Origin: a virus
Virus record (IMG/VR): IMGVR_UViG_3300037483_000201
DNA length: 54,968 nucleotides
Direction: 5' to 3' (one strand)
The position numbers were made by a program, and so were the translations under genes. This document shows positions 13,695-54,968 of the stretch, in pieces; position 1 is the first letter of the stretch; every line of letters starts with the position of its first letter. Under the pieces are notes generated by a model that saw nothing but the letters and a program-made list of their open reading frames with translations, was not told where the DNA came from and searched no databases.

Positions 13695-13728
13695 GGCAGT
13701 TCTCCTTGGTTAAATTTGTGGGTAGCCG

Positions 13729-38540: not shown

Positions 38541-38618
38541 CTATTCCAGCGGATCAGGTAAAACCGGGTGGCCAATGAACAGGCCCGCGCCAACCAACCC
38601 GAAATAAATACCCTGCAT
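38541..38618 (-). CDS. 25-aa hydrophobic micro-ORF
   Basis: Hand translation gives MQGIYFGLVGAGLFIGHPVLPDPLE. The ATG shares a base with the giant gene stop (TAATG). Its TAG is in frame with the paralog A reading frame. Confidence 0.3.
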   Translation of the reverse strand: MQGIYFGLVGAGLFIGHPVLPDPLE

Positions 38619-41600
38619 TACTGTAGTACCAGCTCTACGTAACGCTGATTGAATCGCGCCATGGCCAACCGCATCTGGGCCTCAATCTGCTCCACGCGAT
38701 CCTTGTTACCGCTGTTTTCCGCCAATCGTTTTTGTTTGCGCAACTTGGCCAGCCGTGATCGAGTCAGTTTTTCCATACCGATCAGTTTGGCCTCTGGCGA
38801 TCCCTTGGCTTTGAGTTGCTCAGAACCCCGGAGTTCTTTAACTTGCTTGGCGGTGTATTGCACGTCGTCGGACCACTCATAATACCGTGATTGAAGTGCT
38901 CTGGAGGTGTCGTAACCGTAGAGCTTGCGTGCCATGGGCACTTCCTTCAGGGTAATCTCTTCACCAGTAACAGCTTTATGGGCGATGTTGAAAGAGTCAG
39001 CCACTACACGACCAGCGGACCCAGTACTGAAATCAACCAGCACGTCCATCCACTCCGGTGATAGATTGATCGTCCCTGGTCGTACTTCATCTCCGCCGCT
39101 CATGTCGTTCAGCCATTTTGTGATCGACTTCGATACTTCTCGGCTGTTACTCCAGTGTTGTTGATATTCCGGTTTCGGCACACCGAACGGCGAGGCTTCC
39201 GGTTTCAACGGCGCACCCGTCCAGATTTTGTTCTCGCCTATCTGGACCGCAGGGTCAATGATGGTTGGTGAAAAGGCCTGTAGTACAGTCCCTGATCCTA
39301 CCGGGTTGAAGGCGTCCGCAAAAGCAGAGGCTGTTTTGGCCGCTGATTTACTGGCATCAAACCGCTCCCCGGTCAACATGTCGCCGAACTGCTGCCCGAT
39401 CACATGCAGGACGTTGTATCCCCATGGCAGAGGGAATTTGAATACCGGCTGTTTCTCGCCCATGACGATCAAGTTCCTGGCCTTTTCGTAAGCCTGGATG
39501 TTGTCGTACAGATTCTCGCCGTCGTCGTCATCACCAGACATGGATCGGTTAAAGATATCCAGCATAACCGCAAATCCTATGGTGCCAACTGCCAGAGCCC
39601 GGCCTTTCTTGCTGTAAGCAAGGGCTTGTAACATCCTGATCTGCCCCTGGATACTTGCATTGTAAAATAGATACAGTGCGTTCATCATCGGCCCGGCAGT
39701 CCCTTTCCGGTTAAAATTGACTGTCAAATTCTTGGCCAGGCTGGCAGCGGCATCATCAGTGGCACCCAGTTCAACCGCTTTACGGAAAGCCGCTAATCGA
39801 ACGCCATTCTCAACGATGGTATTGTAGTCGCTAACGAATCTTGCGGCAGCGAAGATTGCGCCCTTGCCTTTCTCGGCCCGCATCCGCTCCATTTCCTTCC
39901 CCAGCTTGTGTTGACGATCAAGAACGTCTTTATAGTGATCCAACCATCCGGTTTTGCCGCCGGCCTTTCGGAACCGCTCAGCCCAACCAGCCCAATCGGT
40001 ATCCGTGCGCCCCTGTCTCAAATTCTGATACAACCCCTTCAAAGCGCCCGGGACCATTTTGATTACCTGCGTTTCAACACCTACCAACTCGGTATCGGTC
40101 ATATTATAAACCGCAGTCTGTATATCTCTGGCAAAGTTAGAAATCACGAATTCAGGCGACAATGATGTATTCAGGGTCGCCAGTATTCGGTTGACGCCAA
40201 GCAGGAAGCGGGTCAATTTACCCATATCGCCGTGGTCAAGGTTCTTCATGGCCTTGGCGATCCGCATGGCCTCTGGGCTGGATTCATTAAATGTCACAGT
40301 GTGGCCCACCCCTTCCACCTTGACCTTGAACTCGTTGTCGTATTCCCTTGGGTCGCTAACCATGCGGACCTCTCCATTAACAACAGCGGGCTGTCTTTTC
40401 TGGGTGTCTACAGTCCACAGTCCTGAATTCTGGGTATTTTTTGCGAACTCAAGGAACGCCTGCCCCACTCTGTTTTTCTCACTCCTGATGACCGTAGCTT
40501 CATACTGAGCAATGACGTTGGTCAGGACGTTGGTAACTGCTTTGTGGCTGCCTGTGCGCTGCCTCGACTCTTTCCCGCGGATATTAAAGCCTTGCCCCCT
40601 GGGTGGTAGTAGAGTCTTGGCTTCTTCACGCTTCAGCGGGACATACTTGGAATAGGTCTTATTCCACGCATCCACCTCTTCCTGAGTAATTAACCCGGTA
40701 TTCAGCATGATTTGAACTCGTTCCTGATTGATTTGATCTATTAGGGTGCCTACGTCCTGAAGCGCCTGGTTCCCGGTGTGTTGTCCAAGTATTGCCGCGG
40801 CGTCCGTGTCGCTCATACCAGACAAATCCGTATTATCTGCACGATCCGGGTTGATCCGCTTCAGGTAGGTATTGGCCTCTTGGGCGTGTCTGGCGTGCAG
40901 CCACCGGTCGATCTGGTCCATTTCGAGGCCGGTGTCCGCGCCTTTTTGCAATAGCGGCTGGATCCGATCTTCCTCGAACCGCTCTAACCTCTCCCCAGCA
41001 CGACCCAGCCAAATAGATTCACGTAGATAAGCGTCTTCAGCCTCTGTTACGCCCAAGTCACTCTGGATATGTTTCAGGTCGATGTACTTGTCCTGCAAAA
41101 CGTAACGGATCGGGTCCAGCCTGCGGGTGGCACGACGGAATATCTCAGCATATCCACGACTGGTTGGCTCAGTGCTATTGGGCTGTGTCGGTGGCTGGCC
41201 GCTTTCCTGTGTCTCAATCGCCTCCTGCCGCTCCCGTAACCGTCTTACATACGGCGGGTCGCGACTTTCTAACGATGTATTGAGCAAACCGCCTGTATAA
41301 TTAATTTGTGTAGGAGCTTCGCCCAAACTCAGCAACGGCTGTACCGGCGTATCCAACAGGCGATCAGTGATCCGGAGTATTTCTGATAATGCCGTCTCCG
41401 CCCTCTCTGGGAGTCCTAAGAATTTTCTGATTGCGGTAACAAATCGGCTCCATAGCGTGCCTCCTTTGTAAGGTATGCTCTCTAAATAATCCTGCATAGC
41501 ACGATTAGTAAGTGCCCATGAAACTAATTCACCAGTATCTTCCATGGCATTATGACCTTGTGCCACAACACGCTCTATCCGTTCGAGTTTATTGAAATCT

Positions 41601-44600
41601 CCTGCAGCGGCATTTATACGCTCAGTTAAATACCCAGCGATTTCTTTATGCACATCCTCTAAATCTGCAATGTTTTTATGCAGTTCTGTCTTTCCTGGTT
41701 GACCGCCGATATAAATGGCTGACTGCGTAACGGCGTGCAATAATTCATGTAAAACCGTTTCGTAAGAAGTACCCACTATCCCGGTTACATCAGCGCCTTG
41801 AACCCAGATATCGGTTTTTGTTGAATCATAGGCACGCCAGGTCATACCTTTCATCTTGCCTGCCAGCTGCGCATGAACCGGCTCACCTAGATGGGCTACC
41901 TTAAAATCGAACGATAACCCAGATTTTTCCATGCGCCGCAGTTGATTGGCAACACGAAAAGCGATCAGTCTGTAGTCGCTTGACGGGGCATTCTTACGAA
42001 TGAAATCAGCCGCCTCAATTGCGCTCTTACCCTCAACCCCAGACTGTACCTCCTGTGCCTCCTGGGAAGATGGATCGTTGTCTAATGCTCCCATTGAGGT
42101 ATTACGCAGCCCCTGTTGGTCGCGGTCTTTCATAGAGAACAGGATATTGGGGTTATCAGGTTCGGGCTGCTGCACAGGACGGAAGTCACCGGCGCGCAGG
42201 GCGAAGCGCTCACGTATCGGTACCACCTCGCCGTTCGTCCGCTCAATACCGGAATCATCGAATATCCATGGCGAGAATTCCCGCGTCATACGGGTAGTCT
42301 GCTGCAGCAGGCCGTTCAGCTTCTCCATGCCGGTGCCGGGCAGGTTCGGTAGTTCTTTGTCCAGCACAGGCGCCATCTCATCCTTGAGCCGGTCGATAAG
42401 CTGGCTGTCCGTGAGATCATCTTTGACCACGTCGGCGCGTTCACGCAGCGGCGCCATAGCAGGCTCGACGGCTTCATTGATGTAGGTTTCAATCTTCCGC
42501 TCGTTCACGCCGGCCCGGTACATCTCGTCCACCACGGCATTGACCCGCAGCGCCTCCATCTTCTGCCGCTGCTCGGGACGCTGCTTCTTCTCGAGCCGGT
42601 CCATCAGGCTGGTCACACGCGAGTCAGACATGGCGAACCGGATGTCAGGGTTCGCAGGGTCGAAGGTGCCACGGTTGCCGGTGGCGGATTTGATCTGCTC
42701 TGGAAACCTTACTGCGTAATAAGTTCCGTCATATCCCAAACCATTAGCATTTTTGATTATTAACCCATCGTGCTCACTTTTAGAAAAAATAGATGCGTAG
42801 TTTTTGAACGTGCTAGGTCTGCCCTTTGCGTCAATTATCATAGGATTTTCTATTTTTATATACACAGGGAATACAGACACTCCACTTCCTTGATTGGCGC
42901 TAACCCACTCCATATACCCCTCATCATAAAACTCATTATCGCCTGCTTGCCATAATTCTTTTTGAGATTTGAGTTTGTCTTGCCACCCTCTAGGCAGTAC
43001 ACTTTTTGCGTATACTGATGCTTCTTCAGAAAGAGACGTGAACCAAACGAGTTTATTTTTTTTGTCTGGTCTTGCAATCCCTGATGATCCTGCTTTAGTG
43101 GGATCAAAAACAGTAACATCAGCAGTCGTCCCATGATAAACAACCAGTGGCAGTCCCTGCTCATCCACCACCTTGGAGCCCTTGAACCAGTCGCGGAACG
43201 CCTTGGTATTGGTCTGCCGTTGCGCGGCCATGAACCGCCCCTGCGGATCCCGCGCCGTCTCCCCGGTCCGCGTCCCCACCTCGCCACGCTCGACCCGCTG
43301 GAACACGTCATCCGCTGATTGGAAGCCGTTCCCGCGCAGTGCATTGCCGAGGGCCCGGAAGAAGTTTCGTATCCGCTCGAACGCGGTGCGCAGGAACCCG
43401 CCTGCCTTGGTCCTCCCGTCCTTCCAGTCGGCGAACATATCAGCGACGGCCTCCTCGACCATCGCCTCCTCGGACAGGCCAAGGCCATCGTATCGCTCGC
43501 GGACGCCAGCCATCCGGTCAGTATCAGCCTTCGCCGCTTTCTCCAGGGTCCGCCACTCTGCTGCCCGGAGCAGGCCCATGTCCTTCAGAGCGTGGATGAT
43601 TTCATGGTTCATGGTCCAGGGCGCGTTCGGGGCCTGCATGGCAATCTCGATGAAGCCGCGCACGTACCGCCCATCGGCCTCAGATGCCTTGCCGTCCGCC
43701 ATGGCCTGGATGCGGGTCTTCAGGTTCAGCGCCACCTTGTCGGACATGCCAACCTGCTTGAGGCGGGCCTTGAGGTCCTCGACCACGTTGACGGCAACCC
43801 GGGCGAACTCGGGGCGCAGTGCGAAACGGATATCAGGGTTCGCAGGGTCGAACGTCCCGCGGTTGCCGGTGGCGGATTTGATCTGGGTGGGGGAGAAGGC
43901 GACGAAGTCATCGCGCTTGACACCGGAATCTGTCGTGCTGCTGCGGATGACAATCCCATCGTGCCCTGCCCGAATGAGCGAATTTCGTAGGGATTTCATC
44001 CGCGCCTCTATGCTGGACCCTTTCCTTTCGTTACCGGCCGACACGAAGGCGCTCCACCCGTCGTATTCCTTCGGGTTCTGGAGGGACAGGTAAACCGGTA
44101 CCGTTGCCGGGCGATCCTCCGACGGGACGCGAACGCGCTGAAACGGCTCGACCGCCGCTGGGTCGGAAGCAAACCAATGGCCCATGACGCCGCCCAGTCC
44201 GCCGCGCAATTTGCCGCTGAATGCCTCTATGTCTCGTGTCGTCCCGTGATACACCACCAGCGGCCGGCCCTGGCCGTCGACCACCTTTGATTTTCCGAAC
44301 CAATCTTTGAAATTCGAAGTTTCTGTTACGTCCCGCCGCAGCGAAAACATCTCCACGCCACGGTCTGTCTCGCGGGTCTCCACAGTGTTGAAGAAGTGGT
44401 CGAAACCTTCACGGATGACCTGGACTTCAGCGGCCTCTGGGTAGGGATAGGAGCCTTCCAGTTCCATGCCCAAGGCCGCGGCCGCATCCCAATAGTCCTG
44501 GGACACGATATTGGCGAGGTAGTCGTTGGATAGACCTTGATCCTGGAGTTTGGCGATGACGTAGCTCTCGAAGGACCGTGCTGTCATTTCCCGGCCAGTG

Positions 44601-47600
44601 GTCCAGTAATCCTTGGCTTTGCGCTCTAACATACCGGATCGTTGTTTCAATCTGGTCTTATTGACAGCCTGTGTAACAGTCTTGAACGCATCCACCATCT
44701 CTGGCCGTACACCTTCGCCCCGGAAATAGGGCTTCTCAGTCACAAAACCTTCCTTGTCCTGCCTCATCCTGGAGAAGTAATTATCGAGTGAATGCCACCA
44801 TTCATGAGCAAGCGATCCAGCCCCGGCCTTTTTCGTCAGGTTAATCACAACGGTGTCGGATTCATAATGTGCCGCTGCCGCACTACCGCCGGCACCCTTA
44901 CCGCCTGATCCTCTTGCGCCGAATGCCAATCCCAGCTCGCCGTTCAATGACAGTGCTTTCGATGGTATATCCAGAATTCCGGCCAAGTCCATCAGGGCGT
45001 CGTAGGCGTTATTTAAGTCCTGCTGACGCTTACCGCCTTCCACCCAGTTGCCGAACTGGACACCTTTGAATCCGAACGCCTCAGAGAACTGCTCCGGCGT
45101 GACATCGGCACCATTGCGATGATCGATACCAACACGCGGGGAATTCGTGTCTTTACGCTCACTGGGGATATCCTTGTACTGATCCAGCATGGCTTCGAGT
45201 TCTGCCTGGTGTGCTGCCTTGTACTCCCTGGCTTCCTTAATGGAAGCAAATCGCTTCAACTGAACAACCCGCTTGCCGATTTTCTTGCCGATGAAATACG
45301 GATCAGCCGTGTCGCCTCGCGTGGAGTAGATATCGAACCGTACTGTTTTCGATGACTCCGGTCCGGCTTCCATCCCGGCATACACCTTCTTAAATTTTTC
45401 AATGGCCTCAGCCCGCGTGTCGCCTTTTACAATCATGCTTGGCATATTGCTGAATGCCGTTTTCCTGGCGGCTTTCTCAACAGCCCATATGACCTTCGGT
45501 GTGCTAAATTTCTCTCCGGCATAGACAGAATATTCGCCCATGCTGACACGGAGGCCCTTGAGTGATTTTTCGTGACCGACGGCCGCATACAAATCTGCCC
45601 GACCACTAACGGTGTCGGCCACATTCCGGTACTCATTCCGTCCCAATAGCGTCCGTACCTGCTGCGCGGTCACTTCGCCGCTAAGTAACCGCTCGGACAT
45701 ATCACGGAGTCCACTAACCTGCTCTGCCCACTGCTTCAACTTCCAACTCTTTTTAGGTTTAACAGGTATTTCATCCCTGGCGGCGCGGACAAAGGCAACA
45801 GACCACGGGCTAGCACCTTCATCGATCAGTTGTTGGTAATCAGGCTCCGGCCATGACTCTGACAATGGACGTGCGGATATATCCACTCCTTTGGCATCGG
45901 CAAGGCGCTGTGCATAGGTATGTTTTTTTGCTCCTTGTAATACCTCACCGAAGTCATCGATTTTGTTTGTCTGTTTGGCTGGCTTTTCAGCCGGTTGCCC
46001 AATATTCGCTATCTTATCCGCAGCCGCAGTCAGCTTATCGGCGGACTCGGAGAGTTTATTGGCGGCGGTTGTGATGGGGTCGGCTGGTGCTAAATCTGAT
46101 CCGGGTCGTTCGCCCCCCGTGCCTTCCCGAGTTGCTGTAGTTTTCGCACGGTCGCCAATAACTCGCTCTGGCTCTGGTGCTTGAGCGGCTTCAATAACGC
46201 CTTGCGGGCGCTCACCTCGCGTTGTCCGCTGTCCTGCTTCTTCTCTGGTGTTTTTGTTATCATATAGTGCCGCCTCCGCCTGTTCAATTGTAGTGCCTAT
46301 ACCAAAACTAAAACCAGGCCCTGTATAGTTTAGACCATTTCCTGTGATAGTGACCCCACGCAAATAGTCTTGGGCCAGTTCCATAGCTTGCTGGAGTTCA
46401 CCGACATTATCATAATGGACATAGAACTCATCCCCGGAAACATGGAAAGCATCCCCCCCCACACCGGCATCACGAAAGGCATCACCCATGACGGCAATCA
46501 GCCGATCTCCGGCATCGTGTCCCATGTTGTCGTTTACCCACTTGAGACTATCGAGATCAACAGAGGCAATATTTTCCTTGGGTGCCCGTCCAAGCCATGC
46601 ACGATTAGATCCTAATCCGGTACGCTCGTCTGTCATCAGGGCGGTGCGCAACTCCTCGGCGTAGGCGCGGAGCTCAGCCGGATCGGTAATGTCCTCAAGC
46701 CTGCGGTCATAGATGGTGCGCTGTACATCGTCGCGGCGGGATGGTAGCGCTGCACTCTCTTTCGTCTCTGCATTGGTGATCAGTAGCGGATTGTCAGTCC
46801 CACCCTCAATGGTGCGCGGACCCATGAATCCGTCTTTGAGGTACCGGGTACCGTCACCACCCTCATAGATGTCCTGACCCTCAGAATTTTTCCCGATCTT
46901 GATTTCCTGATCTGGCTTTGTTCGTATCTCACGCCTGTCTTCATCTACCCGGCCCTCGACGGTCTCCCACATGCGGCCGTTGTACGAGATCCTGGCTACT
47001 TCTTTGCCGTCCAGGTAAACCTTAGCGCCGTCGCCAATACTGGACGCGCCAGCACCAGTCTGTTCACGGAATTGATCCCACTTATCCTGGGCATCAGCGA
47101 ACGATTCTACCGGGTAGCGCTTTCCGCGGAATTCGACCTCCATCTGCGCAACTGGCTGTGTCTCTGGTGCTGCCGCCTGCTTTACCAGTACCGCATTAGC
47201 TTGTGTGATCGCTTCTGCTTTACTCTTTACGGTGGCCAGCCCACCTTTCTCATCCCGGTACTGCCAGCGGCCGGCGCGCGCAGCGAGCTTACTTGCGCCA
47301 GGCTGGATAAGTCCGGCGGCGATTAACTCGGATTCGGTTTTGGCTGGTACTTCATGTTTTACTTTAACTAACTCTCCACGTGTAACATTTTGCTGATCTT
47401 CGATATCCACCTGTTTACCACGATTCTCATCGAAGATATCCCCGGCGGATTCAGCCGGGACGTGTTCCCGGCCTTTGCCAAGTTTCTGATCTACCTCGAG
47501 TTGTTTGTCGGCGAGGGTCTGGGCCGTGACTGGAGCGGCACCGAAGAGATCGGTTTCTACTTGGCCTGTCGGCGTTTCGGCTTGTACCCGTTTTTCTGTT

Positions 47601-49795
47601 GCAGGAGAAACAAGCGCAGGGCTTTCATTCGCGCGTCTTTGCGCGACGGCGCTTTCAAATCTTTCGAGGATGTCTTCATCGCTTATTTCCTGTATAGCAG
47701 CACGTTCAACGATATCTCTAATTGTATCAGAATCCAGCCCCATTTGCAGGCCAGCGTGCATTAAATCCAGGGCTTCACGCTCTTCGCCAGGCTCCAGGAA
47801 CACAGGATCCTGATCCTCTGTCAGCCAGGCCGTGTCCTCGGCATAAGCCGCATCCTCATATTGCTCGATTTCCGGGTTACGGACAGACTCATCCGCCAGC
47901 CAACGCACGGCCCTGGCCTCCCGTGCGGATAAAGGCTCCCCAGCGGCAGCTTTCTCAACCGCAGCCTGTAATTGCTCCGGTTTCATCCGGACCGTTTTAT
48001 CGCGCCGAAAGTCCGCCCACCAAGGGGCGTAAGGAACCCATGTGGTACGGCCGATCACCGGACCTGTGGCCTCATTCGGCCCGTCGTCATCCCGTCGCTC
48101 CCGTTGCAACTTCCCGCCCACCTCAGACCATCCGGCTTGATTTGCCATATTACGAAGAATATCGGCCTGGGTTTCGTCCAATGCGATAATTTCGCCCCTT
48201 GGGGTGCGCTCGCGCTTCGGTATCGTGGATTCTGTCTCAGGGATGGGTGCAGGGACAGGCTCAGGCAGCGTTGCTCCTGCGGGTTCTGGTTGGGTTATTT
48301 GTTTGGTTTCAAGGCTTCTACCGGCCGCATTCTCTTGTGTCTCGGTGAGCGCAATACCCATTTTCTCGGCCGCTTTTCTTCTTGCCGGCGTCAGAGATAA
48401 CTCTTCCGGCGACATGGGCACCTTGACCTTGGCGCCAGAGGCAGGCTTGGTAGTGTCTTCCTGGATCAGCTCCGCGATCTCGCGGTCTACCGGGTTCGCC
48501 AGGACGGATTCACCCGTTTCCGGGTCGGTGATCCGCGTGGGGTCCGGCATCTCTTCTTCCAATGGAACCAGTTCAAGGGGCTGTGTTACTGCGGTGGTGG
48601 CAGCGTCAATCGCGGCGTCCACGGTTGGCTGCTGGAAGATGTCCTGAGCAACTTTTCCAGGTTCTTTGTCGGCTTTCCTGGCCGCTTCGGCTTCTTTTAT
48701 TAAATCTATCGGTTTCCGTGTTTGTATGGCATTTTGCGCATATACTGACCACTGTTTCGCATAGGCCGGGTCAACTTCTTTCAGGGAGGCGGCTACCAAG
48801 CTGGCGGCCTTTTGACGTTCTTCGGGTTTGCTTTCTGGGTCTGCCAGCGTGTCCCTGATCAGGTTGCGTTGCTGATACTGAATAGGCAGTCCGACCATCC
48901 CCAGTACGGAGGTCATTACTGCGGTGGGGCCAATAACGTGTTTGGCTGCCTCAAGCGGTGAGGTGTCGGTAATACCGGCAGCGCGTTCCACGGCGGTTTG
49001 CCCTGCCGCTTGACCAATCTCTGTCCCGATCTCAATTCCGTAAGTTTTGGCCATGGCCTTGCCAAATTCTTTTAATACCTGCGGGTTTGCGTAGGCTTCC
49101 AGTACCCCTTGCGCGGTAGATTTCCCGGCCGCTTTGGAGATGATCCGTCCGGCGGTCCCAAATATTAAGCCAAGCCCGGCTGTTCCTAAGGTTTCGCCGA
49201 GAGCCTCAATCGTCCCGGTTTTCCAAGCAGCAGACCTAGCCTCTGACTCTGTTAACCCGGCCTCAACCCCGCGCTCCAAAGTATCTTGGGCCTGTGACAG
49301 TCCGAACAGTGCACCACCCGCGCCGCTGGCCAGTGTTAAGCCGGCGATTCCCTGCATCCCAGGAATTGCCATTAATGCCATTGGGGTCACTGACGGCCCA
49401 ATCATCTCCAGTCCTTCAGTGATCGTTTGGCTTACCGCCCCATGGCCTTCTGGTTTTGCTTTCAGCCCCGGCAGGTCACCATACATCTTCCCGACATTAC
49501 GTAAAGATGTGCCGATCTCGTACAACGTGCTACCCCAAGGATCTTCGCCCTCAGGGGCTTCCCCGACCAATTGCGCAGCCCGACCAGCCATCTGTGGGGC
49601 CTCGGACAAGAAGCCCCTGGCCAGAGCTTTACTCCACTCTGAAATATTGCTGGTGGGCTCTGGGGGATTAAAAAGTTGAGTGAATTTCTCGCGGGGGACA
49701 TCGGAGTAGTAACGCTGGTGCAGACCAACCGTGAGTTGATCGTCATTCAGGTCATCGTATTGCGGGTATTGGGTGCGGAACTCGCTGATATTCAC
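38618..49795 (-). CDS. giant polyvalent virion / ejection protein (3,725 aa)
   Basis: A single uninterrupted ORF with a GTG start. Domain motifs are listed in the following 'other' features. Gly-rich hydrophobic segments lie near the N-terminus, and there is a TM at about aa 3400. Confidence 0.9.
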   Translation of the reverse strand: MNISEFRTQYPQYDDLNDDQLTVGLHQRYYSDVPREKFTQLFNPPEPTSNISEWSKALARGFLSEAPQMAGRAAQLVGEAPEGEDPWGSTLYEIGTSLRNVGKMYGDLPGLKAKPEGHGAVSQTITEGLEMIGPSVTPMALMAIPGMQGIAGLTLASGAGGALFGLSQAQDTLERGVEAGLTESEARSAAWKTGTIEALGETLGTAGLGLIFGTAGRIISKAAGKSTAQGVLEAYANPQVLKEFGKAMAKTYGIEIGTEIGQAAGQTAVERAAGITDTSPLEAAKHVIGPTAVMTSVLGMVGLPIQYQQRNLIRDTLADPESKPEERQKAASLVAASLKEVDPAYAKQWSVYAQNAIQTRKPIDLIKEAEAARKADKEPGKVAQDIFQQPTVDAAIDAATTAVTQPLELVPLEEEMPDPTRITDPETGESVLANPVDREIAELIQEDTTKPASGAKVKVPMSPEELSLTPARRKAAEKMGIALTETQENAAGRSLETKQITQPEPAGATLPEPVPAPIPETESTIPKRERTPRGEIIALDETQADILRNMANQAGWSEVGGKLQRERRDDDGPNEATGPVIGRTTWVPYAPWWADFRRDKTVRMKPEQLQAAVEKAAAGEPLSAREARAVRWLADESVRNPEIEQYEDAAYAEDTAWLTEDQDPVFLEPGEEREALDLMHAGLQMGLDSDTIRDIVERAAIQEISDEDILERFESAVAQRRANESPALVSPATEKRVQAETPTGQVETDLFGAAPVTAQTLADKQLEVDQKLGKGREHVPAESAGDIFDENRGKQVDIEDQQNVTRGELVKVKHEVPAKTESELIAAGLIQPGASKLAARAGRWQYRDEKGGLATVKSKAEAITQANAVLVKQAAAPETQPVAQMEVEFRGKRYPVESFADAQDKWDQFREQTGAGASSIGDGAKVYLDGKEVARISYNGRMWETVEGRVDEDRREIRTKPDQEIKIGKNSEGQDIYEGGDGTRYLKDGFMGPRTIEGGTDNPLLITNAETKESAALPSRRDDVQRTIYDRRLEDITDPAELRAYAEELRTALMTDERTGLGSNRAWLGRAPKENIASVDLDSLKWVNDNMGHDAGDRLIAVMGDAFRDAGVGGDAFHVSGDEFYVHYDNVGELQQAMELAQDYLRGVTITGNGLNYTGPGFSFGIGTTIEQAEAALYDNKNTREEAGQRTTRGERPQGVIEAAQAPEPERVIGDRAKTTATREGTGGERPGSDLAPADPITTAANKLSESADKLTAAADKIANIGQPAEKPAKQTNKIDDFGEVLQGAKKHTYAQRLADAKGVDISARPLSESWPEPDYQQLIDEGASPWSVAFVRAARDEIPVKPKKSWKLKQWAEQVSGLRDMSERLLSGEVTAQQVRTLLGRNEYRNVADTVSGRADLYAAVGHEKSLKGLRVSMGEYSVYAGEKFSTPKVIWAVEKAARKTAFSNMPSMIVKGDTRAEAIEKFKKVYAGMEAGPESSKTVRFDIYSTRGDTADPYFIGKKIGKRVVQLKRFASIKEAREYKAAHQAELEAMLDQYKDIPSERKDTNSPRVGIDHRNGADVTPEQFSEAFGFKGVQFGNWVEGGKRQQDLNNAYDALMDLAGILDIPSKALSLNGELGLAFGARGSGGKGAGGSAAAAHYESDTVVINLTKKAGAGSLAHEWWHSLDNYFSRMRQDKEGFVTEKPYFRGEGVRPEMVDAFKTVTQAVNKTRLKQRSGMLERKAKDYWTTGREMTARSFESYVIAKLQDQGLSNDYLANIVSQDYWDAAAALGMELEGSYPYPEAAEVQVIREGFDHFFNTVETRETDRGVEMFSLRRDVTETSNFKDWFGKSKVVDGQGRPLVVYHGTTRDIEAFSGKLRGGLGGVMGHWFASDPAAVEPFQRVRVPSEDRPATVPVYLSLQNPKEYDGWSAFVSAGNERKGSSIEARMKSLRNSLIRAGHDGIVIRSSTTDSGVKRDDFVAFSPTQIKSATGNRGTFDPANPDIRFALRPEFARVAVNVVEDLKARLKQVGMSDKVALNLKTRIQAMADGKASEADGRYVRGFIEIAMQAPNAPWTMNHEIIHALKDMGLLRAAEWRTLEKAAKADTDRMAGVRERYDGLGLSEEAMVEEAVADMFADWKDGRTKAGGFLRTAFERIRNFFRALGNALRGNGFQSADDVFQRVERGEVGTRTGETARDPQGRFMAAQRQTNTKAFRDWFKGSKVVDEQGLPLVVYHGTTADVTVFDPTKAGSSGIARPDKKNKLVWFTSLSEEASVYAKSVLPRGWQDKLKSQKELWQAGDNEFYDEGYMEWVSANQGSGVSVFPVYIKIENPMIIDAKGRPSTFKNYASIFSKSEHDGLIIKNANGLGYDGTYYAVRFPEQIKSATGNRGTFDPANPDIRFAMSDSRVTSLMDRLEKKQRPEQRQKMEALRVNAVVDEMYRAGVNERKIETYINEAVEPAMAPLRERADVVKDDLTDSQLIDRLKDEMAPVLDKELPNLPGTGMEKLNGLLQQTTRMTREFSPWIFDDSGIERTNGEVVPIRERFALRAGDFRPVQQPEPDNPNILFSMKDRDQQGLRNTSMGALDNDPSSQEAQEVQSGVEGKSAIEAADFIRKNAPSSDYRLIAFRVANQLRRMEKSGLSFDFKVAHLGEPVHAQLAGKMKGMTWRAYDSTKTDIWVQGADVTGIVGTSYETVLHELLHAVTQSAIYIGGQPGKTELHKNIADLEDVHKEIAGYLTERINAAAGDFNKLERIERVVAQGHNAMEDTGELVSWALTNRAMQDYLESIPYKGGTLWSRFVTAIRKFLGLPERAETALSEILRITDRLLDTPVQPLLSLGEAPTQINYTGGLLNTSLESRDPPYVRRLRERQEAIETQESGQPPTQPNSTEPTSRGYAEIFRRATRRLDPIRYVLQDKYIDLKHIQSDLGVTEAEDAYLRESIWLGRAGERLERFEEDRIQPLLQKGADTGLEMDQIDRWLHARHAQEANTYLKRINPDRADNTDLSGMSDTDAAAILGQHTGNQALQDVGTLIDQINQERVQIMLNTGLITQEEVDAWNKTYSKYVPLKREEAKTLLPPRGQGFNIRGKESRQRTGSHKAVTNVLTNVIAQYEATVIRSEKNRVGQAFLEFAKNTQNSGLWTVDTQKRQPAVVNGEVRMVSDPREYDNEFKVKVEGVGHTVTFNESSPEAMRIAKAMKNLDHGDMGKLTRFLLGVNRILATLNTSLSPEFVISNFARDIQTAVYNMTDTELVGVETQVIKMVPGALKGLYQNLRQGRTDTDWAGWAERFRKAGGKTGWLDHYKDVLDRQHKLGKEMERMRAEKGKGAIFAAARFVSDYNTIVENGVRLAAFRKAVELGATDDAAASLAKNLTVNFNRKGTAGPMMNALYLFYNASIQGQIRMLQALAYSKKGRALAVGTIGFAVMLDIFNRSMSGDDDDGENLYDNIQAYEKARNLIVMGEKQPVFKFPLPWGYNVLHVIGQQFGDMLTGERFDASKSAAKTASAFADAFNPVGSGTVLQAFSPTIIDPAVQIGENKIWTGAPLKPEASPFGVPKPEYQQHWSNSREVSKSITKWLNDMSGGDEVRPGTINLSPEWMDVLVDFSTGSAGRVVADSFNIAHKAVTGEEITLKEVPMARKLYGYDTSRALQSRYYEWSDDVQYTAKQVKELRGSEQLKAKGSPEAKLIGMEKLTRSRLAKLRKQKRLAENSGNKDRVEQIEAQMRLAMARFNQRYVELVLQ
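41398..42028 (-). other. HExxH module 3 of the giant protein (aa ~2590-2800)
   Basis: SYETVLHELLHAVTQ, with His2683 at 41747-41749. The module is locally AT-rich. Confidence 0.55.
42635..43213 (-). other. ART-like module 2 (aa ~2195-2387)
   Basis: FRDWFKGSKVVDEQGLPLVVYHGTT..LVWFTS..VYIKIENP..HDGLIIKN..QIKSATGNRGTFDPANPDIRFA. Confidence 0.5.
43348..43798 (-). other. HExxH module 2 (aa ~2000-2150)
   Basis: PWTMNHEIIHALKDMGLL, with His2064. Confidence 0.5.
43811..44323 (-). other. ART-like module 1 (aa ~1825-1995)
   Basis: FKDWFGKSKVVDGQGRPLVVYHGTT..GHWFAS..VYLSLQNP..HDGIVIRS..QIKSATGNRGTFDPANPDIRFA. Confidence 0.5.
44398..45133 (-). other. HExxH module 1, polyvalent-protein-type metallopeptidase-like domain (aa ~1555-1800)
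   Basis: FGFKGVQFGNWVEGGKRQQDLNNAYDALMDLA..LGLAFGARGSGG..AAAHYE..INLTKKAGAGSLAHEWWHSLDNYF. Confidence 0.6.
46228..46678 (-). other. GGDEF-fold nucleotide cyclase-like domain (aa ~1040-1190), SGDEF variant
   Basis: DERTGLGSNRAW..IASVDLDSLKWVNDNMGHDAGDRLI..FHVSGDEFYV..FSFGIGT..AEAALYDNKNTRE. SGDEF is aa 1120-1124, at 46424-46438. Confidence 0.7.
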
Positions 49796-49810: not shown

Positions 49811-50902
49811 TTATTTCTTCAGCCAGGCTTGCAGTTGCTTCCGTCTTTCGTTACTGATATCCCCTATCCTGGCAACAAGCCCGACCTGATAGGCCAGATA
49901 TTCAGTTGCCTCTTTGGGAGAGTCAGGGAATGTGCCGTCGGCAATCATTTTTTCAATCCTTGTTTTTGCGGTAGCGGCATCCCTTTCGTCCATATCAAGG
50001 AAGCGATTTGTTAACCCCTGGCGTAGTTTACCCAGTGCCTCGGTCCCCTTGGAACGGAAGACCCGACTGGGTTCATCCCCGTTTTGCGCCTGGTTGTTTA
50101 TTTCGTTATTTGTGATACCGCGACTGTTTCTTTGCGGGGGCTCTGCACCGCTTTCCAGCTCCTGGATGCGCCTTCTCAGATCCTCAATAATTTTACTTGA
50201 GCTGTCGTCGTTCGGTACTTCTGTCGGTTCTTCGCCAAGTAAAGCCCTGATGCCAGCCGGGTCATTATCTGTATTCGTGTCTGGCGTAGAGAGCGTCTGT
50301 ATAACCTCACCCTCGTCCAGGTCGTAGAGAATGTCCGGGTTCTTGATAATTTGCCCCATCTCGTCTTGAGTCTGCCCGCCGTCTACACGAATGATATTAC
50401 GTTTCTGCCCAGTAGCCGAGCGGTATTCCCTTGCCGCTTTATTTCTCTCATCGTCTGGCAAGCTCTTATCAAACATGCGGCCACGAAGTCCTGACAGCAG
50501 CTCCTGATCTTTTAATTCCATCCCGGCTATTTTTGCCCGAATATCGAAGTTTTCCACTTCTTTCTCTGTGCGTAGTTTCTCCAGATCAAGGCGCTCTTGC
50601 TGCAGGCCAATGGTCTGCTGATCTGTCCGTCTTCGATAGGCCCGATCATCGGCTTGTGTCGCTCGGTCCATCACCCTTTCGCCAAAATCTTCCATGCGCT
50701 CCAGTCGTCTTTCTGTCCGGTCTTCTTTTCTGATTTCGCCTTGGTATTCACGCTCTTCCTTGGTACGCTGCGTCTCATATTCCTGCAGCTTCGCCAGACG
50801 ATCATTCGTGATCTGCTCTTGCTGTTTGGCATAGGCCCACTGCTGCGTGACCGGAGCCATACCCTTGAAGGCTTTGCCGATAGCACGACCGATATCCATC
50901 AC
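49811..50902 (-). CDS. highly charged ejection-module protein (363 aa)
   Basis: E/R/K/D-rich helical sequence, directly upstream of the giant gene. Confidence 0.65.
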   Translation of the reverse strand: MMDIGRAIGKAFKGMAPVTQQWAYAKQQEQITNDRLAKLQEYETQRTKEEREYQGEIRKEDRTERRLERMEDFGERVMDRATQADDRAYRRRTDQQTIGLQQERLDLEKLRTEKEVENFDIRAKIAGMELKDQELLSGLRGRMFDKSLPDDERNKAAREYRSATGQKRNIIRVDGGQTQDEMGQIIKNPDILYDLDEGEVIQTLSTPDTNTDNDPAGIRALLGEEPTEVPNDDSSSKIIEDLRRRIQELESGAEPPQRNSRGITNNEINNQAQNGDEPSRVFRSKGTEALGKLRQGLTNRFLDMDERDAATAKTRIEKMIADGTFPDSPKEATEYLAYQVGLVARIGDISNERRKQLQAWLKK

Positions 50903-51462
50903 GCACCCCCTGGTGGTTGCATAGCGCCGTTAACAACACCCGGGTGTGGTGCCTGTGGCGGTTGCTGTGTTGCCATGGGTTGCCCGCCTGGCTGCATCTG
51001 TTGCCCCTGCATTCCCTGCATCTTGGCCGCCAGTTCATCCTGGGGGACGCCGTACATCTGTAACAAGCCCTGTGTCACCAGCCGCATGGTTTCCTGTAGG
51101 CCCTGCTCATCAAGAGGATCAATAGTCCCGGATACCTCCCCAAGCTCTGTCACGTACATCATGATCTTCAGCGCCGTGGGGATCACCGTGGATTCCGGCA
51201 CCCCCTTGGCTTTCTCCCTAAGAATAGACATGATCTTCAAAGTGACCTCAGAAACGGCCTGCTGTGGATCGTCACTCGCGGATTTATACAGCTTCATAAT
51301 CCCGGGGTGAGTTTTCTTGTCGTACAAGAGTTGCAGGGCGGCCAATTCCATGCGCTTGGAGGCATCCTGCTCTTCGGGTGTCCCCTGATCGGCTTGCGCG
51401 GGCTGATCTTGTTCGTTCAACATTTCAGGGGTTTCCTCTGGGGGCTGTACTGTCTGTTGCAT
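50899..51462 (-). CDS. ejection-module protein (187 aa) with Q/P/G/M-rich C-terminus
   Basis: ATGA junction. The C-terminal sequence is MQGMQGQQMQPGGQPMATQQPPQAPHPG. Confidence 0.6.
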   Translation of the reverse strand: MQQTVQPPEETPEMLNEQDQPAQADQGTPEEQDASKRMELAALQLLYDKKTHPGIMKLYKSASDDPQQAVSEVTLKIMSILREKAKGVPESTVIPTALKIMMYVTELGEVSGTIDPLDEQGLQETMRLVTQGLLQMYGVPQDELAAKMQGMQGQQMQPGGQPMATQQPPQAPHPGVVNGAMQPPGGA

Positions 51463-51465
51463 GGT

Positions 51466-52566
51466 CTAACCTCCGACTCGCTTGTTGAGTATCCCGTTAG
51501 TGAACACGGGCTGATCCGTGCCACGGTAGGTCAATGTTCTTGGGCCGGTACGCGTTCCGAAATTGACACCCCCTACTTGCCTGTTGGCGTTCTGACGATT
51601 CCGCCTGTCTTCGTCTTCCTGATCTCTTAATTGCTGTTGATCTTCCATAATATCTATCTCGTCCGGGGACAGTGCGCCGCCGATTGCGTTGATGGCCTGG
51701 TTAGCCACGGTTGGATATTTATCCAGAAATTCCAATATGCTCTTACCGGAAGCGATGGCACTGTTGACGATTCCTCCTGAAGACCCAGCCATTGTCGCCG
51801 GTGTCAGCGGGGCAGCCACAGCGGAGGCCGGAATTGCTTCTAATCCCAGCAGTCCAGTGGTAGCCCCTGCTGCTCCGGCTACCGCCCCCCCTACCCCCAT
51901 GCCTGCCGGGGTTAGCGGTGCGGCAATTGCGGAGGCCGGGATCGCTTCAATACCAAGCAATCCAGTGGTTCCGGCGGCAGATCCGGCGCCAGCCCCTGCT
52001 GCACCAGCACCAGCGGCAGGCGCGGCAAGAGCCTGTAGAGCACCATAGCCCCCCACAATCGCCACACTTCCAAGAATGCCATATTTAATGGCATTACTAA
52101 ATATACTGGGTTGCTCGGACGGTGGGGATCGGGTAAAGCCCATCCAGTTTCTATTTTCATTATTATAATCAAGCAGGCTTATCTCCCCTTTCTGGAATTT
52201 CTCCCATGCGGGTAACATGCCACGACGGATGGTTTGCTTTGATGTGCGGCCAAAAGGCATCCCTTCCTCTGGGGGCTCCTGCGCGAATGGATCGCTGGGA
52301 TTAAGTCCCTCAACTACAATATATTCAATGTCTCTGGCGTTGGCCTGCTGCCCCTTGGGGCCAAATCCCTGGGTATAAGTACTGCCGCCCTGTATATTCT
52401 TTGTCTGCTGTTCATTAAGCCTTGCCGCAGACTCTTCAGGCGTCATTTTTCGAGAACCTCGCGGCGAGTACCCTTCTCCAGATAAAAGCGCAAGGGCTTC
52501 TAATGCATCGGGGCTTAAGCCCGCCTTTTGTTGCTCAGTGAGAGCCACTATCAGGACCGCCTCCAT
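51466..52566 (-). CDS. ejection-module protein (366 aa) with Gly/Ala-rich hydrophobic repeats
   Basis: TTGLLG(I/L)EAIPASA(I/V)AAPLTPA is repeated 37 aa apart. The C-terminal ~100 aa is paralogous to the 99-aa protein upstream. Confidence 0.65.
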   Translation of the reverse strand: MEAVLIVALTEQQKAGLSPDALEALALLSGEGYSPRGSRKMTPEESAARLNEQQTKNIQGGSTYTQGFGPKGQQANARDIEYIVVEGLNPSDPFAQEPPEEGMPFGRTSKQTIRRGMLPAWEKFQKGEISLLDYNNENRNWMGFTRSPPSEQPSIFSNAIKYGILGSVAIVGGYGALQALAAPAAGAGAAGAGAGSAAGTTGLLGIEAIPASAIAAPLTPAGMGVGGAVAGAAGATTGLLGLEAIPASAVAAPLTPATMAGSSGGIVNSAIASGKSILEFLDKYPTVANQAINAIGGALSPDEIDIMEDQQQLRDQEDEDRRNRQNANRQVGGVNFGTRTGPRTLTYRGTDQPVFTNGILNKRVGG

Positions 52567-52850
52567 CGCTGGTTGATGATCCCCATCGGGCTGGTGGCGA
52601 TCCCGGACTGATCCATGAATTCCTTGCTTGTCTCGCCTTCACCTAAACGTATATCACCAACCATACGGTTTTCGTTCTGACGCCTAAGATCCGTGTCTTC
52701 GCGTTTGCGCCGCAGATCCTCTCTCTTCCGCATGATATCCAATTCATCGGGCGAAGCCATCCCCGCAACCGCGGAGACACCAAGCGATGTCACAAAAGGA
52801 TGATCACCAAGAAAATCAAATACTTTGCCGATGCCGTCGAGTATGCTCAT
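52551..52850 (-). CDS. 99-aa protein paralogous to the C-terminus of 51466..52566
   Basis: SILDGIGKVFDFLGDHP..ASPDELDIMRKREDLRRKRED..RQNENRMVG compares with SILEFLDKYP..LSPDEIDIMEDQQQLRDQEDEDRRNRQNANRQVG. Confidence 0.6.
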   Translation of the reverse strand: MSILDGIGKVFDFLGDHPFVTSLGVSAVAGMASPDELDIMRKREDLRRKREDTDLRRQNENRMVGDIRLGEGETSKEFMDQSGIATSPMGIINQRWRRS

Positions 52851-52853
52851 GAT

Positions 52854-54623
52854 TTATCCCGTAGGTGCTAAATAAGAATCTTCAGTTGTTGGGGGTGGTG
52901 CCCTGTAAGTAGAGGTGGTGTCTTGCGTGTTACCACCCGTAATATTCAGAATATCACCAAAATCCACCCCCGCGGCGGATCCGAATATATCCATCCCAAG
53001 CTGTAAGAGCTCTATCTGCCTGTCCACCAGTTGTTGTTTGGCATCCAGCGTTATATCCCCGTTCGCCAGCACCTCGCTGATATCGGAGCTGGTCTGTACG
53101 AATAATCTGGCCGCAGAATCAGACGCCTGCATCAACATCTTGTACTGTGATTCCACACCAGCGATTGATTCTGCCTGCGTGCCGCGTAGCTCTTGTAATT
53201 CCTTCTGCAGATCATTGGAATTATTACTGATCAACAACTGTGAATCCAATTGCGCCTTCTGCATATCAACGTCTATCTGACGCTGTTTTTCCGCCAGAGA
53301 TTCCCTGGTGGCGATATCCGCTGTTTGCATCTCGCGCTGCAGAACATCATTCATTTCCGCCAGAGATTTTTGCTGGTCCAGTTGTGCCCCCAGCAGTCCT
53401 GATTCTATTCTCCCCTTCTCTCTAGTCAGTTCTATGGCCTGCTCACCTTGGGCGGACAACAACCTCTGTTCAACCCCTTCTTTTTCTCTCAGCATTGTTT
53501 GCTCGAACTTTTGCCTCTCGGACTGTAATGCCTTATCGTTCTTAAACATAGCGTCGATCTGTGTCAGCCTTTGAGCGCCCTCAAGATTAGCCAGGTCACG
53601 ACTTAGAGTATTTTGCTGATCTGCCAGATCCCTTTGCGCCTTCAGTGAATTGAACTGCAACTGCTTGTCTATCTCTCCTTGTTTTTCCGCCAGAGATTCC
53701 CTGGTGGCGATATCCGCTGTTTGCATCTCGCGCTGCAGAACATCATTCATTTCCGCCAGCGATTTTTGCTGGTCCAGTTGCGAGCTTAACAGTCTGAATT
53801 CTATTCTCCCTTTCTCCCTCGTCAGGGCAACAGCCTGCTCGCCTTGTGCAGTCAACAACCTTTGCTCGATCCCTTCCTTTTCTTTCAACATTATTTTTTC
53901 GAAGTTCTGCCGCTCTTCCTGTAATGCCTTATCGTTCTTAAACATAGCATCGATTTGCGCCAGCCTTTGAGCGCCCTCAAGATTAGCCAGGTCACGACTT
54001 AGAGTATTTTGCTGATCTGCCAGATCCCTTTGCGCCTTCAGTGAATTGGACTGCAACTGCTTGTCTATCTCTCCTTGGCGGTTTAACAGGGCGGTTCTAG
54101 TTGCCGCGTCAGCGGTCTGTAATTGTAGGTCGATCTCGCCACGTTCCGATTGGAGCCGGGACTGCGCTTCAGTTTGCGTTCCTATGGTGGTGCGCTGTTG
54201 CTCTCCGGTAGCACCTATCTGCTGTAGCGCCTGCTCGCCTGCGGTACGTTGCCCTCTGGCTTGGTTGATACTGCCGGCGCCGAACTGGAGTGCTTCATTC
54301 CCTGCGACTGCGTTGAATTGTTTGGTGCGGCCATAGATATCCGCATCCTGTTGCGCAATTGGTAGAGCGTTACGGATCACTGCGTTCTGTCCGGCCTCTA
54401 CCCCCATTGTGGTGTTCAGGAGGCCGCGCTGATTAGACGCTTGAGAGGCCTGGGTGCGGCTTAATTGCGACAAAGGACTATCTTCAGCCATCACGCCTCT
54501 TAACTGGCCGGCCACCGTGTCTGTTTCAGGGTCGATCCCGATCTTGTTTGGATCATACCCAGAAACCTTCAGATCGTCGTCGTCAATCAGTGAATTGATT
54601 ATCCCGTTTTTACTTGCTGGCAT
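52854..54623 (-). CDS. Q-rich coiled-coil ejection / structural protein (589 aa) with an internal tandem duplication
   Basis: 132-aa units at aa 168-299 and 300-431, plus a partial third unit. Confidence 0.7.
   Translation of the reverse strand: MPASKNGIINSLIDDDDLKVSGYDPNKIGIDPETDTVAGQLRGVMAEDSPLSQLSRTQASQASNQRGLLNTTMGVEAGQNAVIRNALPIAQQDADIYGRTKQFNAVAGNEALQFGAGSINQARGQRTAGEQALQQIGATGEQQRTTIGTQTEAQSRLQSERGEIDLQLQTADAATRTALLNRQGEIDKQLQSNSLKAQRDLADQQNTLSRDLANLEGAQRLAQIDAMFKNDKALQEERQNFEKIMLKEKEGIEQRLLTAQGEQAVALTREKGRIEFRLLSSQLDQQKSLAEMNDVLQREMQTADIATRESLAEKQGEIDKQLQFNSLKAQRDLADQQNTLSRDLANLEGAQRLTQIDAMFKNDKALQSERQKFEQTMLREKEGVEQRLLSAQGEQAIELTREKGRIESGLLGAQLDQQKSLAEMNDVLQREMQTADIATRESLAEKQRQIDVDMQKAQLDSQLLISNNSNDLQKELQELRGTQAESIAGVESQYKMLMQASDSAARLFVQTSSDISEVLANGDITLDAKQQLVDRQIELLQLGMDIFGSAAGVDFGDILNITGGNTQDTTSTYRAPPPTTEDSYLAPTG
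53259..54122 (-). repeat. 396-bp coding tandem repeat, ~2.2 copies
   Basis: ccgccagagattccctggtggcgatatccgctgtttgcatctcgcgctgcagaacatcattcatttccgccag recurs about 396 bp apart. Confidence 0.85.
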
Positions 54624-54638
54624 AATTATATAGCCTCA

Positions 54639-54968
54639 TCAAATATTACCCATTATGTAAATCCCGCCCAGCCACAAGATCCTTTCAACCCACATCTGGA
54701 GCGTGTTGGAGGCGCGCTCCTGTCTTAATGCGCGCTCCAGGTGTTTCGCTTCTTCTTCCCGGCGCTCAGCTTCCATTGACCGGTGGATCAGGGCATCAAC
54801 CAGGCTGTTGTTGTTTCTGGCCCTGGATTGATTCTCGCTCTCAAGCGCCTGTTTCATTGCCGCCAGATTATCTTTGTCCTGCTCGGATTGCTGGAAGTCA
54901 TCTTCCGACATGCAGATTTTGTCCCCGCACCGCTCGACATTCAAAGCGGCTATGTGGTAGGGGAGGGT
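54639..54968 (-). CDS. u-spanin-like lipoprotein, C-terminal part (continues from 1..165 across the junction)
   Basis: The ORF-track entry 54639..54944 is the same frame. There is a coiled-coil region and the C-terminal TM MWVERILWLGGIYIMGNI. Confidence 0.6.
   Translation of the reverse strand, partial: TLPYHIAALNVERCGDKICMSEDDFQQSEQDKDNLAAMKQALESENQSRARNNNSLVDALIHRSMEAERREEEAKHLERALRQERASNTLQMWVERILWLGGIYIMGNI
54639..54968. repeat. Direct repeat copy B, first half
   Basis: Aligns with 38082..38411. 54915..54968 also duplicates window positions 1..54 (circular or terminal overlap). Confidence 0.85.

Follow-up and report, generated by a model that had tools for sequence, protein, structure and literature searches.

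Locus and domain architecture

The virus record IMGVR_UViG_3300037483_000201 of IMG/VR is considered here as a stretch of 54,968 nucleotides, called the window below. A giant open reading frame (ORF) on its minus strand encodes a protein in which a module of the GGDEF family, predicted to be a catalytically intact nucleotide cyclase, is embedded (Table 1). The first and the last 54 bp of the window (1-54 and 54915-54968) have the same sequence. The genome is therefore circularly closed, complete or terminally redundant, with a length of about 54.9 kb. Read across the genome junction, the giant gene is the final gene of a long minus-strand late unit, and its GTG start codon lies 15 nt past the stop of the gene before. 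Genes for a small and a large terminase and for an SU10-type portal support the phage context. A megablast comparison of 25 kb of the window with 50,697 phage records gave no match, hence no close cultured relative of this phage is present among them. The exact sequences of the giant protein and of its relative P0001 had no record in public assemblies either.

Within the giant protein, Pfam identifies GGDEF, LPD5, LPD1, two copies of the ADP-ribosyltransferase ART-PolyVal, and LPD38. Several unrelated enzymatic and LPD domains are thus combined in one phage polypeptide and, by this composition, the protein is a polyvalent protein sensu Iyer et al. 2017 (PMC5512222). The duplication of ART-PolyVal is visible in a repeated start, '...PLVVYHGTT', at aa 1847 and aa 2218. 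Three zincin-like HExxH motifs are also present, despite which the giant protein matched no Pfam peptidase family; by analogy with the proteins described by Iyer et al. 2017 (PMC5512222), they are possible candidates for self-processing peptidases.

Table 1 Positions in the window of the predicted cyclase module, its motifs, the other parts of the giant protein and two further ORFs
Feature	Position	Strand	Residues	Basis or remark
Whole GGDEF module (predicted)	46172-46744	(-)	aa 1018-1208	Clade profile hmmsearch, AF2, N-terminal extension analysis
RRDD, window version of the N-terminal 'RRxDxxxR(K/R)'	46727-46738	(-)	aa 1020-1023	
DERTGLGSNRAW, TGLxNRR block	46595-46630	(-)	aa 1056-1067	End of helix alpha-0
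VDLDSLKWVND	46529-46561	(-)	aa 1079-1089	Predicted metal-binding Asp D1080, K1085, predicted guanine-reading Asn N1088
GHDAGD	46505-46522	(-)	aa 1092-1097	D1097, equivalent of PleD D344
H1118-V-SGDEF	46424-46444	(-)	aa 1118-1124	Active-site hairpin beta-2/beta-3; SGDEF alone 46424-46438, aa 1120-1124
FSFGIG	46295-46312	(-)	aa 1162-1167	Last core beta strand; model strand E127-132
AEAALYDNK	46253-46279	(-)	aa 1173-1181	AD.ALY.AK motif of helix alpha-4
REEAGQRTTRGERPQG, clade-specific basic tail	46199-46246	(-)	aa 1184-1199	Replaces the C-terminal strands of canonical GGDEF
Giant ORF, polyvalent protein carrying the GGDEF module	38618-49795	(-)	3,725 aa	ORF list, translation, Pfam
LPD5	45077-45523	(-)	aa 1425-1573	Pfam PF18799, E 1.6e-43
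HEWWH, zincin-like HExxH motif	44792-44806	(-)	aa 1664-1668	Regex
LPD1	44372-44623	(-)	aa 1725-1808	Pfam PF18796, E 2.2e-18
First ART-PolyVal ADP-ribosyltransferase	43850-44278	(-)	aa 1840-1982	Pfam PF18760, E 7.2e-41, two stretches
HEIIH, zincin-like HExxH motif	43592-43606	(-)	aa 2064	Regex
Second ART-PolyVal copy	42737-43165	(-)	~aa 2211-2353	Limits approximate; second Pfam stretch
HELLH, zincin-like HExxH motif	41735-41749	(-)	aa 2683	Regex
C-terminal module, ~830 aa	38630-41131	(-)	aa 2889-3722	Includes LPD38, aa 3428-3621
Pentapeptide-repeat ORF	31755-32573	(+)	272 aa	Pfam Pentapeptide, E 1.4e-82
RF-1/GGQ-domain ORF	27292-27720	(-)	142 aa	Pfam RF-1, E 3.7e-17
aa, amino acids; AF2, AlphaFold2

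Motifs and predicted fold of the module

A preliminary description of this DNA had placed a GGDEF-type cyclase domain at 46228-46678. The site was right and the motifs are real, but the plus strand has stops throughout; the feature lies on the minus strand, and the module is somewhat larger than proposed. The envelope of the clade hidden Markov model covers aa 1034-1208 (46172-46696), and a conserved N-terminal extension begins ahead of it, near aa 1018 (46744). All six motifs that had been quoted are present in the order given, between aa 1056 and aa 1181, and their assignment to residues was essentially correct, the Pfam alignment putting K1181 at the position of the YxAK lysine.

Several independent comparisons assign the module to the GGDEF family. 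Pfam GGDEF (PF00990), whose gathering cut-off is 23.8 bits, is matched with 33.4 bits (E 4.6e-8), and aa 1078-1182 are aligned to positions 37-156 of the 161 profile positions. When a profile was built from the module together with five homologues, it recognized 48 different GGDEF sequences of solved structure, SadC scoring best (4wxo, E 2.5e-13). The AF2 model of aa 1036-1200 has a mean pLDDT of 94.7 and a pTM of 0.87, with the helix and strand order of a GGDEF palm. In this model, D1080 is found at the end of beta-1 (model residues 40-46), and the hairpin formed by strands 81-85 and 88-93 bears SGDEF (residues 85-89). The palm is not disrupted and the metal-binding aspartates are not misplaced in it, either of which had been named as an observation that would speak against a cyclase. 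A Foldseek search against the PDB returned GGDEF domains for all of the best 50 matches (SiaD, SadC, DgcR, PleD, WspR, DosC and others), led by SiaD (7e6g, E 2e-9) with the highest TMq, 0.74. FimX, LapD and the Hypr structure 6d9m are also among these GGDEF matches. The Pfam, profile, AF2 and Foldseek results are far beyond what chance would give, and a chance motif match was rejected. Membership of the Cas10 and mCpol families was rejected as well, since ordinary diguanylate cyclases are what the module matches best, in sequence as in fold; class III cyclases and reverse-transcriptase palms appear only at E>0.01 in BFVD and were likewise discarded.

As for the active site, the metal-binding aspartate, the acidic pair of GG[DE]EF and the guanine-reading Asn/Asp pair are all found. 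D1122 is predicted to be an Mg2+ ligand and E1123 the general base, roles that are described in PMC6456294. N1088 and D1097 are nine residues apart, which is the spacing of PleD N335/D344 that had been pointed out; the D344 position reads the Watson-Crick face of guanine (PMC6456294). The Hypr cGAMP synthases, for instance Geobacter GacA, share the fold and the GGDEF (Asp) motif with the module. Their defining feature, Ser (or Thr) in place of D344 (PMC6456294), is lacking in the window, where this position is Asp, and Ser occurs there nowhere in the clade; a Hypr GGDEF was rejected for this reason. The RxxD inhibitory site (I-site) was correctly said to be missing: the corresponding residues, aa 1111-1114 (-9..-6 from SGDEF), read GVGG.

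The C-terminal part of the module is aligned in two ways. K1181 is a candidate equivalent of PleD K442, and the Pfam alignment ends just after it, at aa 1182 (profile position 156). HMMER instead puts RAKRGGRN of SadC on the basic tail, which shifts the assignment of the alpha-4 motif. The equivalence of K1181 to the phosphate-binding Lys/Arg of PleD (K442/R446) is hence not certain. The basic tail itself is modelled by AF2 as coil, with a pLDDT of about 90.

Size and distribution of the clade

When 1.84 billion representative proteins were searched exhaustively with a profile, 624 clusters (50% identity) were hit at E<=1e-30, so that the clade comprises at least that many. This search was used in place of a word-indexed protein search, which yielded just 5 homologues. 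The 150th match still scored 169 bits, compared with at most 54 bits for solved cellular cyclases under the same profile.

Most members are giants. Of the 152 clade proteins retrieved, 119 exceed 1,000 aa, the longest having 5,713, and in these the domain is internal; at 41 of the 51 loci found on viral contigs of IMG/VR, the domain is encoded by an ORF of 968 aa or more. All 19 related giant ORFs that were tested pass Pfam GGDEF. In these giants, GGDEF is combined with InPase, ART-PolyVal, LPD38, RadC, LPD22, SNF2/Sno helicases, methyltransferases and GNAT, and no domain constantly adjoins it across all of them. BLAST coverage shows that the GGDEF module is a mobile cassette: no more than about 10-15% of the clade proteins have anything else in common with the window protein. 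A pattern scan of genome contigs, swamped by ordinary cellular GGDEFs because its second, degenerate pattern was too loose, found only one close relative; it comes from a Noviherbaspirillum metagenome-assembled genome, where a 2,750-aa ORF carries the domain close to its C-terminal end.

Solo copies exist too. A tblastn search of the module against the 50,697 phage records gave 48 matches, all of them solo genes of Yuavirus (Pseudomonas) or Vojvodinavirus (Bordetella). The encoded proteins, e.g., MP1412 gp43, Bordetella phage CN1 gp42 and that of LK3, are about 40% identical to the window over the whole module and share with it the DSLKWVND, [SA]GDEF and RGERP signature; the CN1 protein was also matched by fold in BFVD (E 2.5e-13). 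They mostly carry the R-x-[SAG] variant. They differ from the window in being stand-alone early-region siphovirus proteins of about 155 aa, not part of a virion giant. The solo genes are annotated 'diguanylate-cyclase GGDEF domain' and lie directly upstream of KlcA/ArdB-type anti-restriction genes, an arrangement that resembles an early anti-defence island. One or two KlcA/ArdB-like genes follow the solo gene, at 7977-8938 in MP1412 (L001) and at 7989-9580 in CN1 (L002). In addition, the Logan metagenome contig L054 encodes a solo clade member of 216 aa (P0004, 158-808) five genes upstream of a giant ORF (4413-10013, >1,867 aa), thus solo and fused forms of the clade occur in the same kind of locus. 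Judged from these searches, the clade is a distinct one. Its members are nearly confined to phage polyvalent proteins, apart from some solo copies beside phage anti-restriction genes. Bacillus phage G gp350 and a protein of SP-15 are further phage GGDEF proteins present in BFVD.

Conserved features of the clade

Conservation was counted over 213 domains taken from proteins clustered at 50% identity. D1080 and N1088 are conserved in all 213, followed by G1121 (212), D1122 and E1123 (211 each), K1181 (210), K1085 (206), D1082 (203) and R1065 (195). The D1097 position is Asp in 190 domains, Asn in 20, Thr in 3 and Ser in none. In the TGL/NRR block, T is retained in 96%, G in 92% and R in 91%. Overall, the catalytic residues are 89-100% conserved, and since they are near-invariant over such divergent clusters, the pattern argues for a maintained catalytic function, as far as this can be predicted, and against degeneracy.

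The SGDEF that had been noted in place of GGDEF is present, and its Ser is the norm of the clade (80%) rather than a product of decay. It covaries with the residue two positions before the motif, which is His in 170 and Arg in 41 of the 213 domains: His goes with Ser (HxSGDEF, 166 domains) and Arg with Gly (RxGGDEF, 35 domains), 11 being mixed. This covariation indicates that the two side chains work together. Similarly, the 'TGLGSNRAW' variant of the window is common to its nearest relatives (P0001, P0015, P0021 and P0024), hence it is a trait of the sub-branch and not decay.

Other features are peculiar to the clade. The loop from the last strand (beta-5) to alpha-4 is minimal. It is followed by the nearly invariant RGERP tail, with the consensus R-E-x-x-G-x-R-A-x-R-G-E-x-P-P-G (R1184 in 197, G1188 in 206, R1190 in 204, R1193 in 200, G1194 in 200 and P1197 in 206 of the 213 domains). 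No RxxD I-site precedes the motif anywhere in the clade alignment. At the N-terminus, a motif 'RRxDxxxR(K/R)' was recognized, its RRxD lying at a fixed distance of -28 from the Thr of TGL in 108 of 201 domains; in control windows the frequency was about 2%. In the sub-branch of the window it reads RRDD and is accompanied by an 11-aa insertion, where AF2 confidence is low. RRxD holds an RxxD. The motif could be a relocated c-di-GMP-binding or inhibitory site, and a processing site or another role is conceivable as well.

Association with pyrophosphatase domains and tandem copies

The pyrophosphatase domain InPase (PF18823) occurs in 57 of 204 clade-bearing proteins (~28%). Considering the 53 such proteins that reach 1,000 aa or more, the distance between InPase and GGDEF is no greater than 100 aa in 29, whereas uniform placement would give about 5; the sequences behind this statistic are related to each other, and the null model is crude. 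InPase is upstream of GGDEF in some proteins and downstream in others. Coordinates were confirmed for three loci with InPase directly ahead of GGDEF, namely L009 (ORF 9131-14695), L019 (7337-15658) and L046 (6602-11062). The domain was found by an iterative search seeded from one match to a PROSITE regex and was then confirmed with Pfam. The PROSITE pyrophosphatase regex itself recognizes only 5 of the 204 clade proteins, and phmmer with E. coli Ppa found no InPase in the clade protein set. Such an adjacency would be expected if the cyclase does turn over nucleoside triphosphates (NTPs), with release of two pyrophosphates (PPi) per product, and the juxtaposition suggests that PPi removal is coupled to the cyclase. 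Iyer et al. 2017 discuss InPase, and a link to GGDEF was not found stated there (PMC5512222).

Tandem GGDEF pairs are encoded in 9 of the 204 proteins, including proteins of about 480 aa that consist of little else, such as P0006 (487 aa). Each GGDEF domain binds one NTP, and two domains must pair for catalysis (PMC6456294); the tandem copies fit this rule.

Probable link of the giant protein to the virion

The preliminary description had called the giant protein injected, which is a reasonable inference from the homology of its C-terminal module. The C-terminal ~830 aa match phrog_616 (E 8.6e-241), and tblastn of this module found matches in 348 phage records (among them Stx2/933W-like, Vibrio and Bcep22-like podophages). 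The 2,783-aa gp35 of Stx2 phage 86, representative of the 933W-like Stx phages, is 33% identical (E 1e-117); it shares the C-terminal module and the LPD5 region and is likewise encoded by the last gene of a late operon. Bcep22 gp75 ('DarB-like', 4,602 aa) is homologous to the C-terminal ~750 aa of the window protein, with 27% identity (E 3.7e-67). Neither match to the window protein covers its GGDEF region. JC1 gp69, which is most similar to Bcep22 gp75, was found in CsCl-purified virions by mass spectrometry with 51 unique peptides (PMC9144972). Moreover, LPD38 is a phage-type-only domain in Iyer et al. 2017 (PMC5512222). The C-terminal module is thus likely the part that is incorporated into the virion, and the giant protein may be packaged and enter the cell with the DNA.

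Proposed function and alternative explanations

The best explanation of these data, to which we give a probability of roughly 0.6, is that aa ~1018-1208 form a catalytically intact GGDEF-family nucleotide cyclase module that uses GTP, acts early in infection and makes cyclic di-GMP (c-di-GMP). The giant protein would be delivered with the DNA, or be made early. Two GGDEF modules would pair with one Mg-GTP each, held through D1080/D1122, N1088/D1097, and K1181 with the basic tail; GTP is the suggested substrate because N1088 and D1097 are the guanine-reading pair. E1123 would then deprotonate the 3'-OH of the partner's nucleotide, and two GTP would be converted into c-di-GMP and 2 PPi, with no feedback through a canonical I-site. 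This burst of c-di-GMP early in infection could reprogram the motility, pili and surface polysaccharides of the host, and hence superinfection and receptor status. Alternatively, it could disturb nucleotide-based defence signalling.

Several observations weigh against this explanation. The canonical cyclases PleD, WspR, SadC, SiaD and DgcR share with the module the palm fold, the metal-binding Asp, the acidic pair, the N/D readers and, in the Pfam alignment, the YxAK lysine, whereas identity is only 17-25%, and the module has no sensory or dimerisation domain, no RxxD I-site, a Ser as first residue of its motif, a shorter beta-5/alpha-4 loop and the basic tail. Where canonical cyclases conserve an Arg two residues ahead of the motif (RxGGDEF; PleD R366), the window has H1118. 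The segment from the NRR arginine to beta-1 has 15 residues in the clade and, by our own count, 27 in PleD; helix alpha-1 is therefore truncated, being about 12 residues shorter than the canonical one. This helix is reportedly one wall of the guanine pocket of PleD. Because the clade departs in these ways (His for Arg, short alpha-1, basic tail) from characterised cyclases, product and base specificity are insecure and are not readable from N1088 and D1097 alone. AF2 models extended N-terminally were of low confidence and predicted no stalk helix or coiled-coil. With a single GGDEF copy and few copies of the protein per virion, a partner would still be needed. The window protein has no InPase by Pfam, and no PilZ, EAL or HD-GYP partner was found across the whole phage. 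Packaging and ejection are judged from C-terminal modules of only ~27-33% identity. Finally, literature searches found neither enzymology for the clade nor experiments on the GGDEF of any phage or polyvalent protein.

The main rival to c-di-GMP synthesis, though a clearly less probable one, is an active nucleotidyltransferase with another product (cGAMP, c-di-AMP, linear pppNpN or other) that serves counter-defence. It would jam or pre-empt CBASS or type III CRISPR signalling, or replenish decoys watched by Panoptes-type guards. The active-site features peculiar to the clade, i.e., HxS covarying in place of RxG, the short alpha-1 and the invariant basic tail, speak for it, and 23 of the 213 domains have Asn or Thr at the D1097 position. 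The position of the solo homologues directly upstream of KlcA/ArdB-type genes points the same way, as does the largely anti-defence nature of the other polyvalent-protein domains (Iyer et al. 2017, PMC5512222), and the related minimal palm enzymes mCpol/OptS make a 2',3'-c-di-AMP decoy (PMC12657218). Nevertheless, N1088 and D1097 are guanine-specifying, the ATP-permitting Hypr Ser is never found at the D1097 position (PMC6456294), and the best sequence and fold matches are all ordinary diguanylate cyclases, not Cas10, mCpol or Hypr. A further point against a counter-defence product is that c-di-GMP activates some bacterial defence effectors, so that the direction of an effect is ambiguous.

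Many GGDEF domains are non-catalytic receptors, and degenerate ones are common in bacterial proteins. The domain of the window could accordingly be catalytically silent, acting as a GTP/c-di-GMP sensor or as a spacer in an internal virion protein. FimX and LapD among the fold matches, the single copy lacking a recognisable dimerisation stalk, and the His in place of Arg ahead of the motif would agree with this. The conservation pattern makes it unlikely: a degenerate GGDEF no longer has the motif or the metal ligands, whereas D1080, D1122, E1123, K1181 and N1088 are 99-100% conserved in the clade. SGDEF variants have also been reported to be active in bacteria, the recurrent pyrophosphatase juxtaposition is hard to explain if no PPi is released, and tandem duplications occur.

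Action in the lysogen or late in infection, where the cyclase would raise c-di-GMP and promote biofilm formation as a lysogenic conversion, is the least probable of these explanations. Lysogens of Bordetella phage LK3, which has a solo homologue, show hyper-biofilm, a correlation only (PMC8471281), and the window has lambdoid recombination genes (ERF, YqaJ, RusA) and repressor-like helix-turn-helix matches; however, the domain of the window is an internal part of a virion-type giant whose late-operon gene would not be expressed in a lysogen, the clade is overwhelmingly found in such giants, and the Pfam overview of the window, which lists top families only, contains no integrase. The solo genes suit lysogenic conversion better than does a virion giant encoded in a late operon.

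Relation to earlier work and significance

The occurrence of GGDEF in a phage ejection protein had been considered unusual in the preliminary description. This view does not hold, as such proteins number in the hundreds and the fusion has already been described. In the Journal of Bacteriology, Iyer, Burroughs, Anand, de Souza and Aravind listed GGDEF among the domains of polyvalent proteins, gave Acetonema longum WP_004096050.1 as an example, and called it 'not very widespread' (Iyer et al. 2017, PMC5512222). They also proposed interference with, or use of, host cyclic-nucleotide signals, which are the same two functions that the preliminary description put forward. Their case and the present one have in common a giant (pro)phage protein, with predicted injection alongside the DNA, in which GGDEF is joined to ART, MPTase-like and LPD domains; the Acetonema protein is compared with the clade by description only. 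The fusion was thus predicted computationally in 2017, and the window is a further example rather than a discovery. That study was computational only and did not describe a clade. New here are the extent of the clade and its sharp delimitation, its own signature (HxSGDEF covariation, short alpha-1, RGERP tail and N-terminal RRxD) and the adjacency to InPase.

It is known that phages break down or sequester the nucleotide messengers of bacteria. No experimental demonstration of a virion-delivered enzyme that makes one was found in the literature. The clade is a large, well-defined and apparently active family placed to make a messenger as soon as infection begins. With c-di-GMP as the product, phage entry would be tied to the main lifestyle switch of the host, in which motility, pili and exopolysaccharide affect receptors and superinfection. 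With another product, new counter-defence chemistry would be involved. It is rather doubtful that the clade as a whole is a virion-delivered counter-defence enzyme which makes a nucleotide signal at DNA entry, as opposed to a c-di-GMP cyclase of the housekeeping type. Were that so, the signal could saturate, mimic or pre-empt immune signalling, or keep Panoptes silent while phage sponges act. For enzymology, the window offers a clean construct (aa ~1018-1210), and the natural tandem and InPase-fused relatives are also usable.

Other genes of the window

The six ORFs (101-589 aa) located 5' of the giant gene, at 49811-54944 on the minus strand, had no Pfam hit at the thresholds used, and four of them searched individually had no PHROG or Pfam hit. 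They do not match the corresponding genes of Bcep22 or Stx2 phage 86 and are possibly novel internal virion or ejection proteins. Besides the genes already mentioned, the window encodes ERF, YqaJ, RusA, YbcO and NusG-like proteins as well as two DNA methyltransferases. Two smaller ORFs stand out (Table 1). The plus-strand early block contains a pentapeptide-repeat ORF with A[DN]LxG-type repeats nearly throughout, whose product is possibly a DNA mimic or an anti-defence protein. The other, a minus-strand ORF with an RF-1/GGQ domain (…SGAGGQHRNK…), is by its sequence a phage-encoded ArfB-like peptidyl-tRNA hydrolase.

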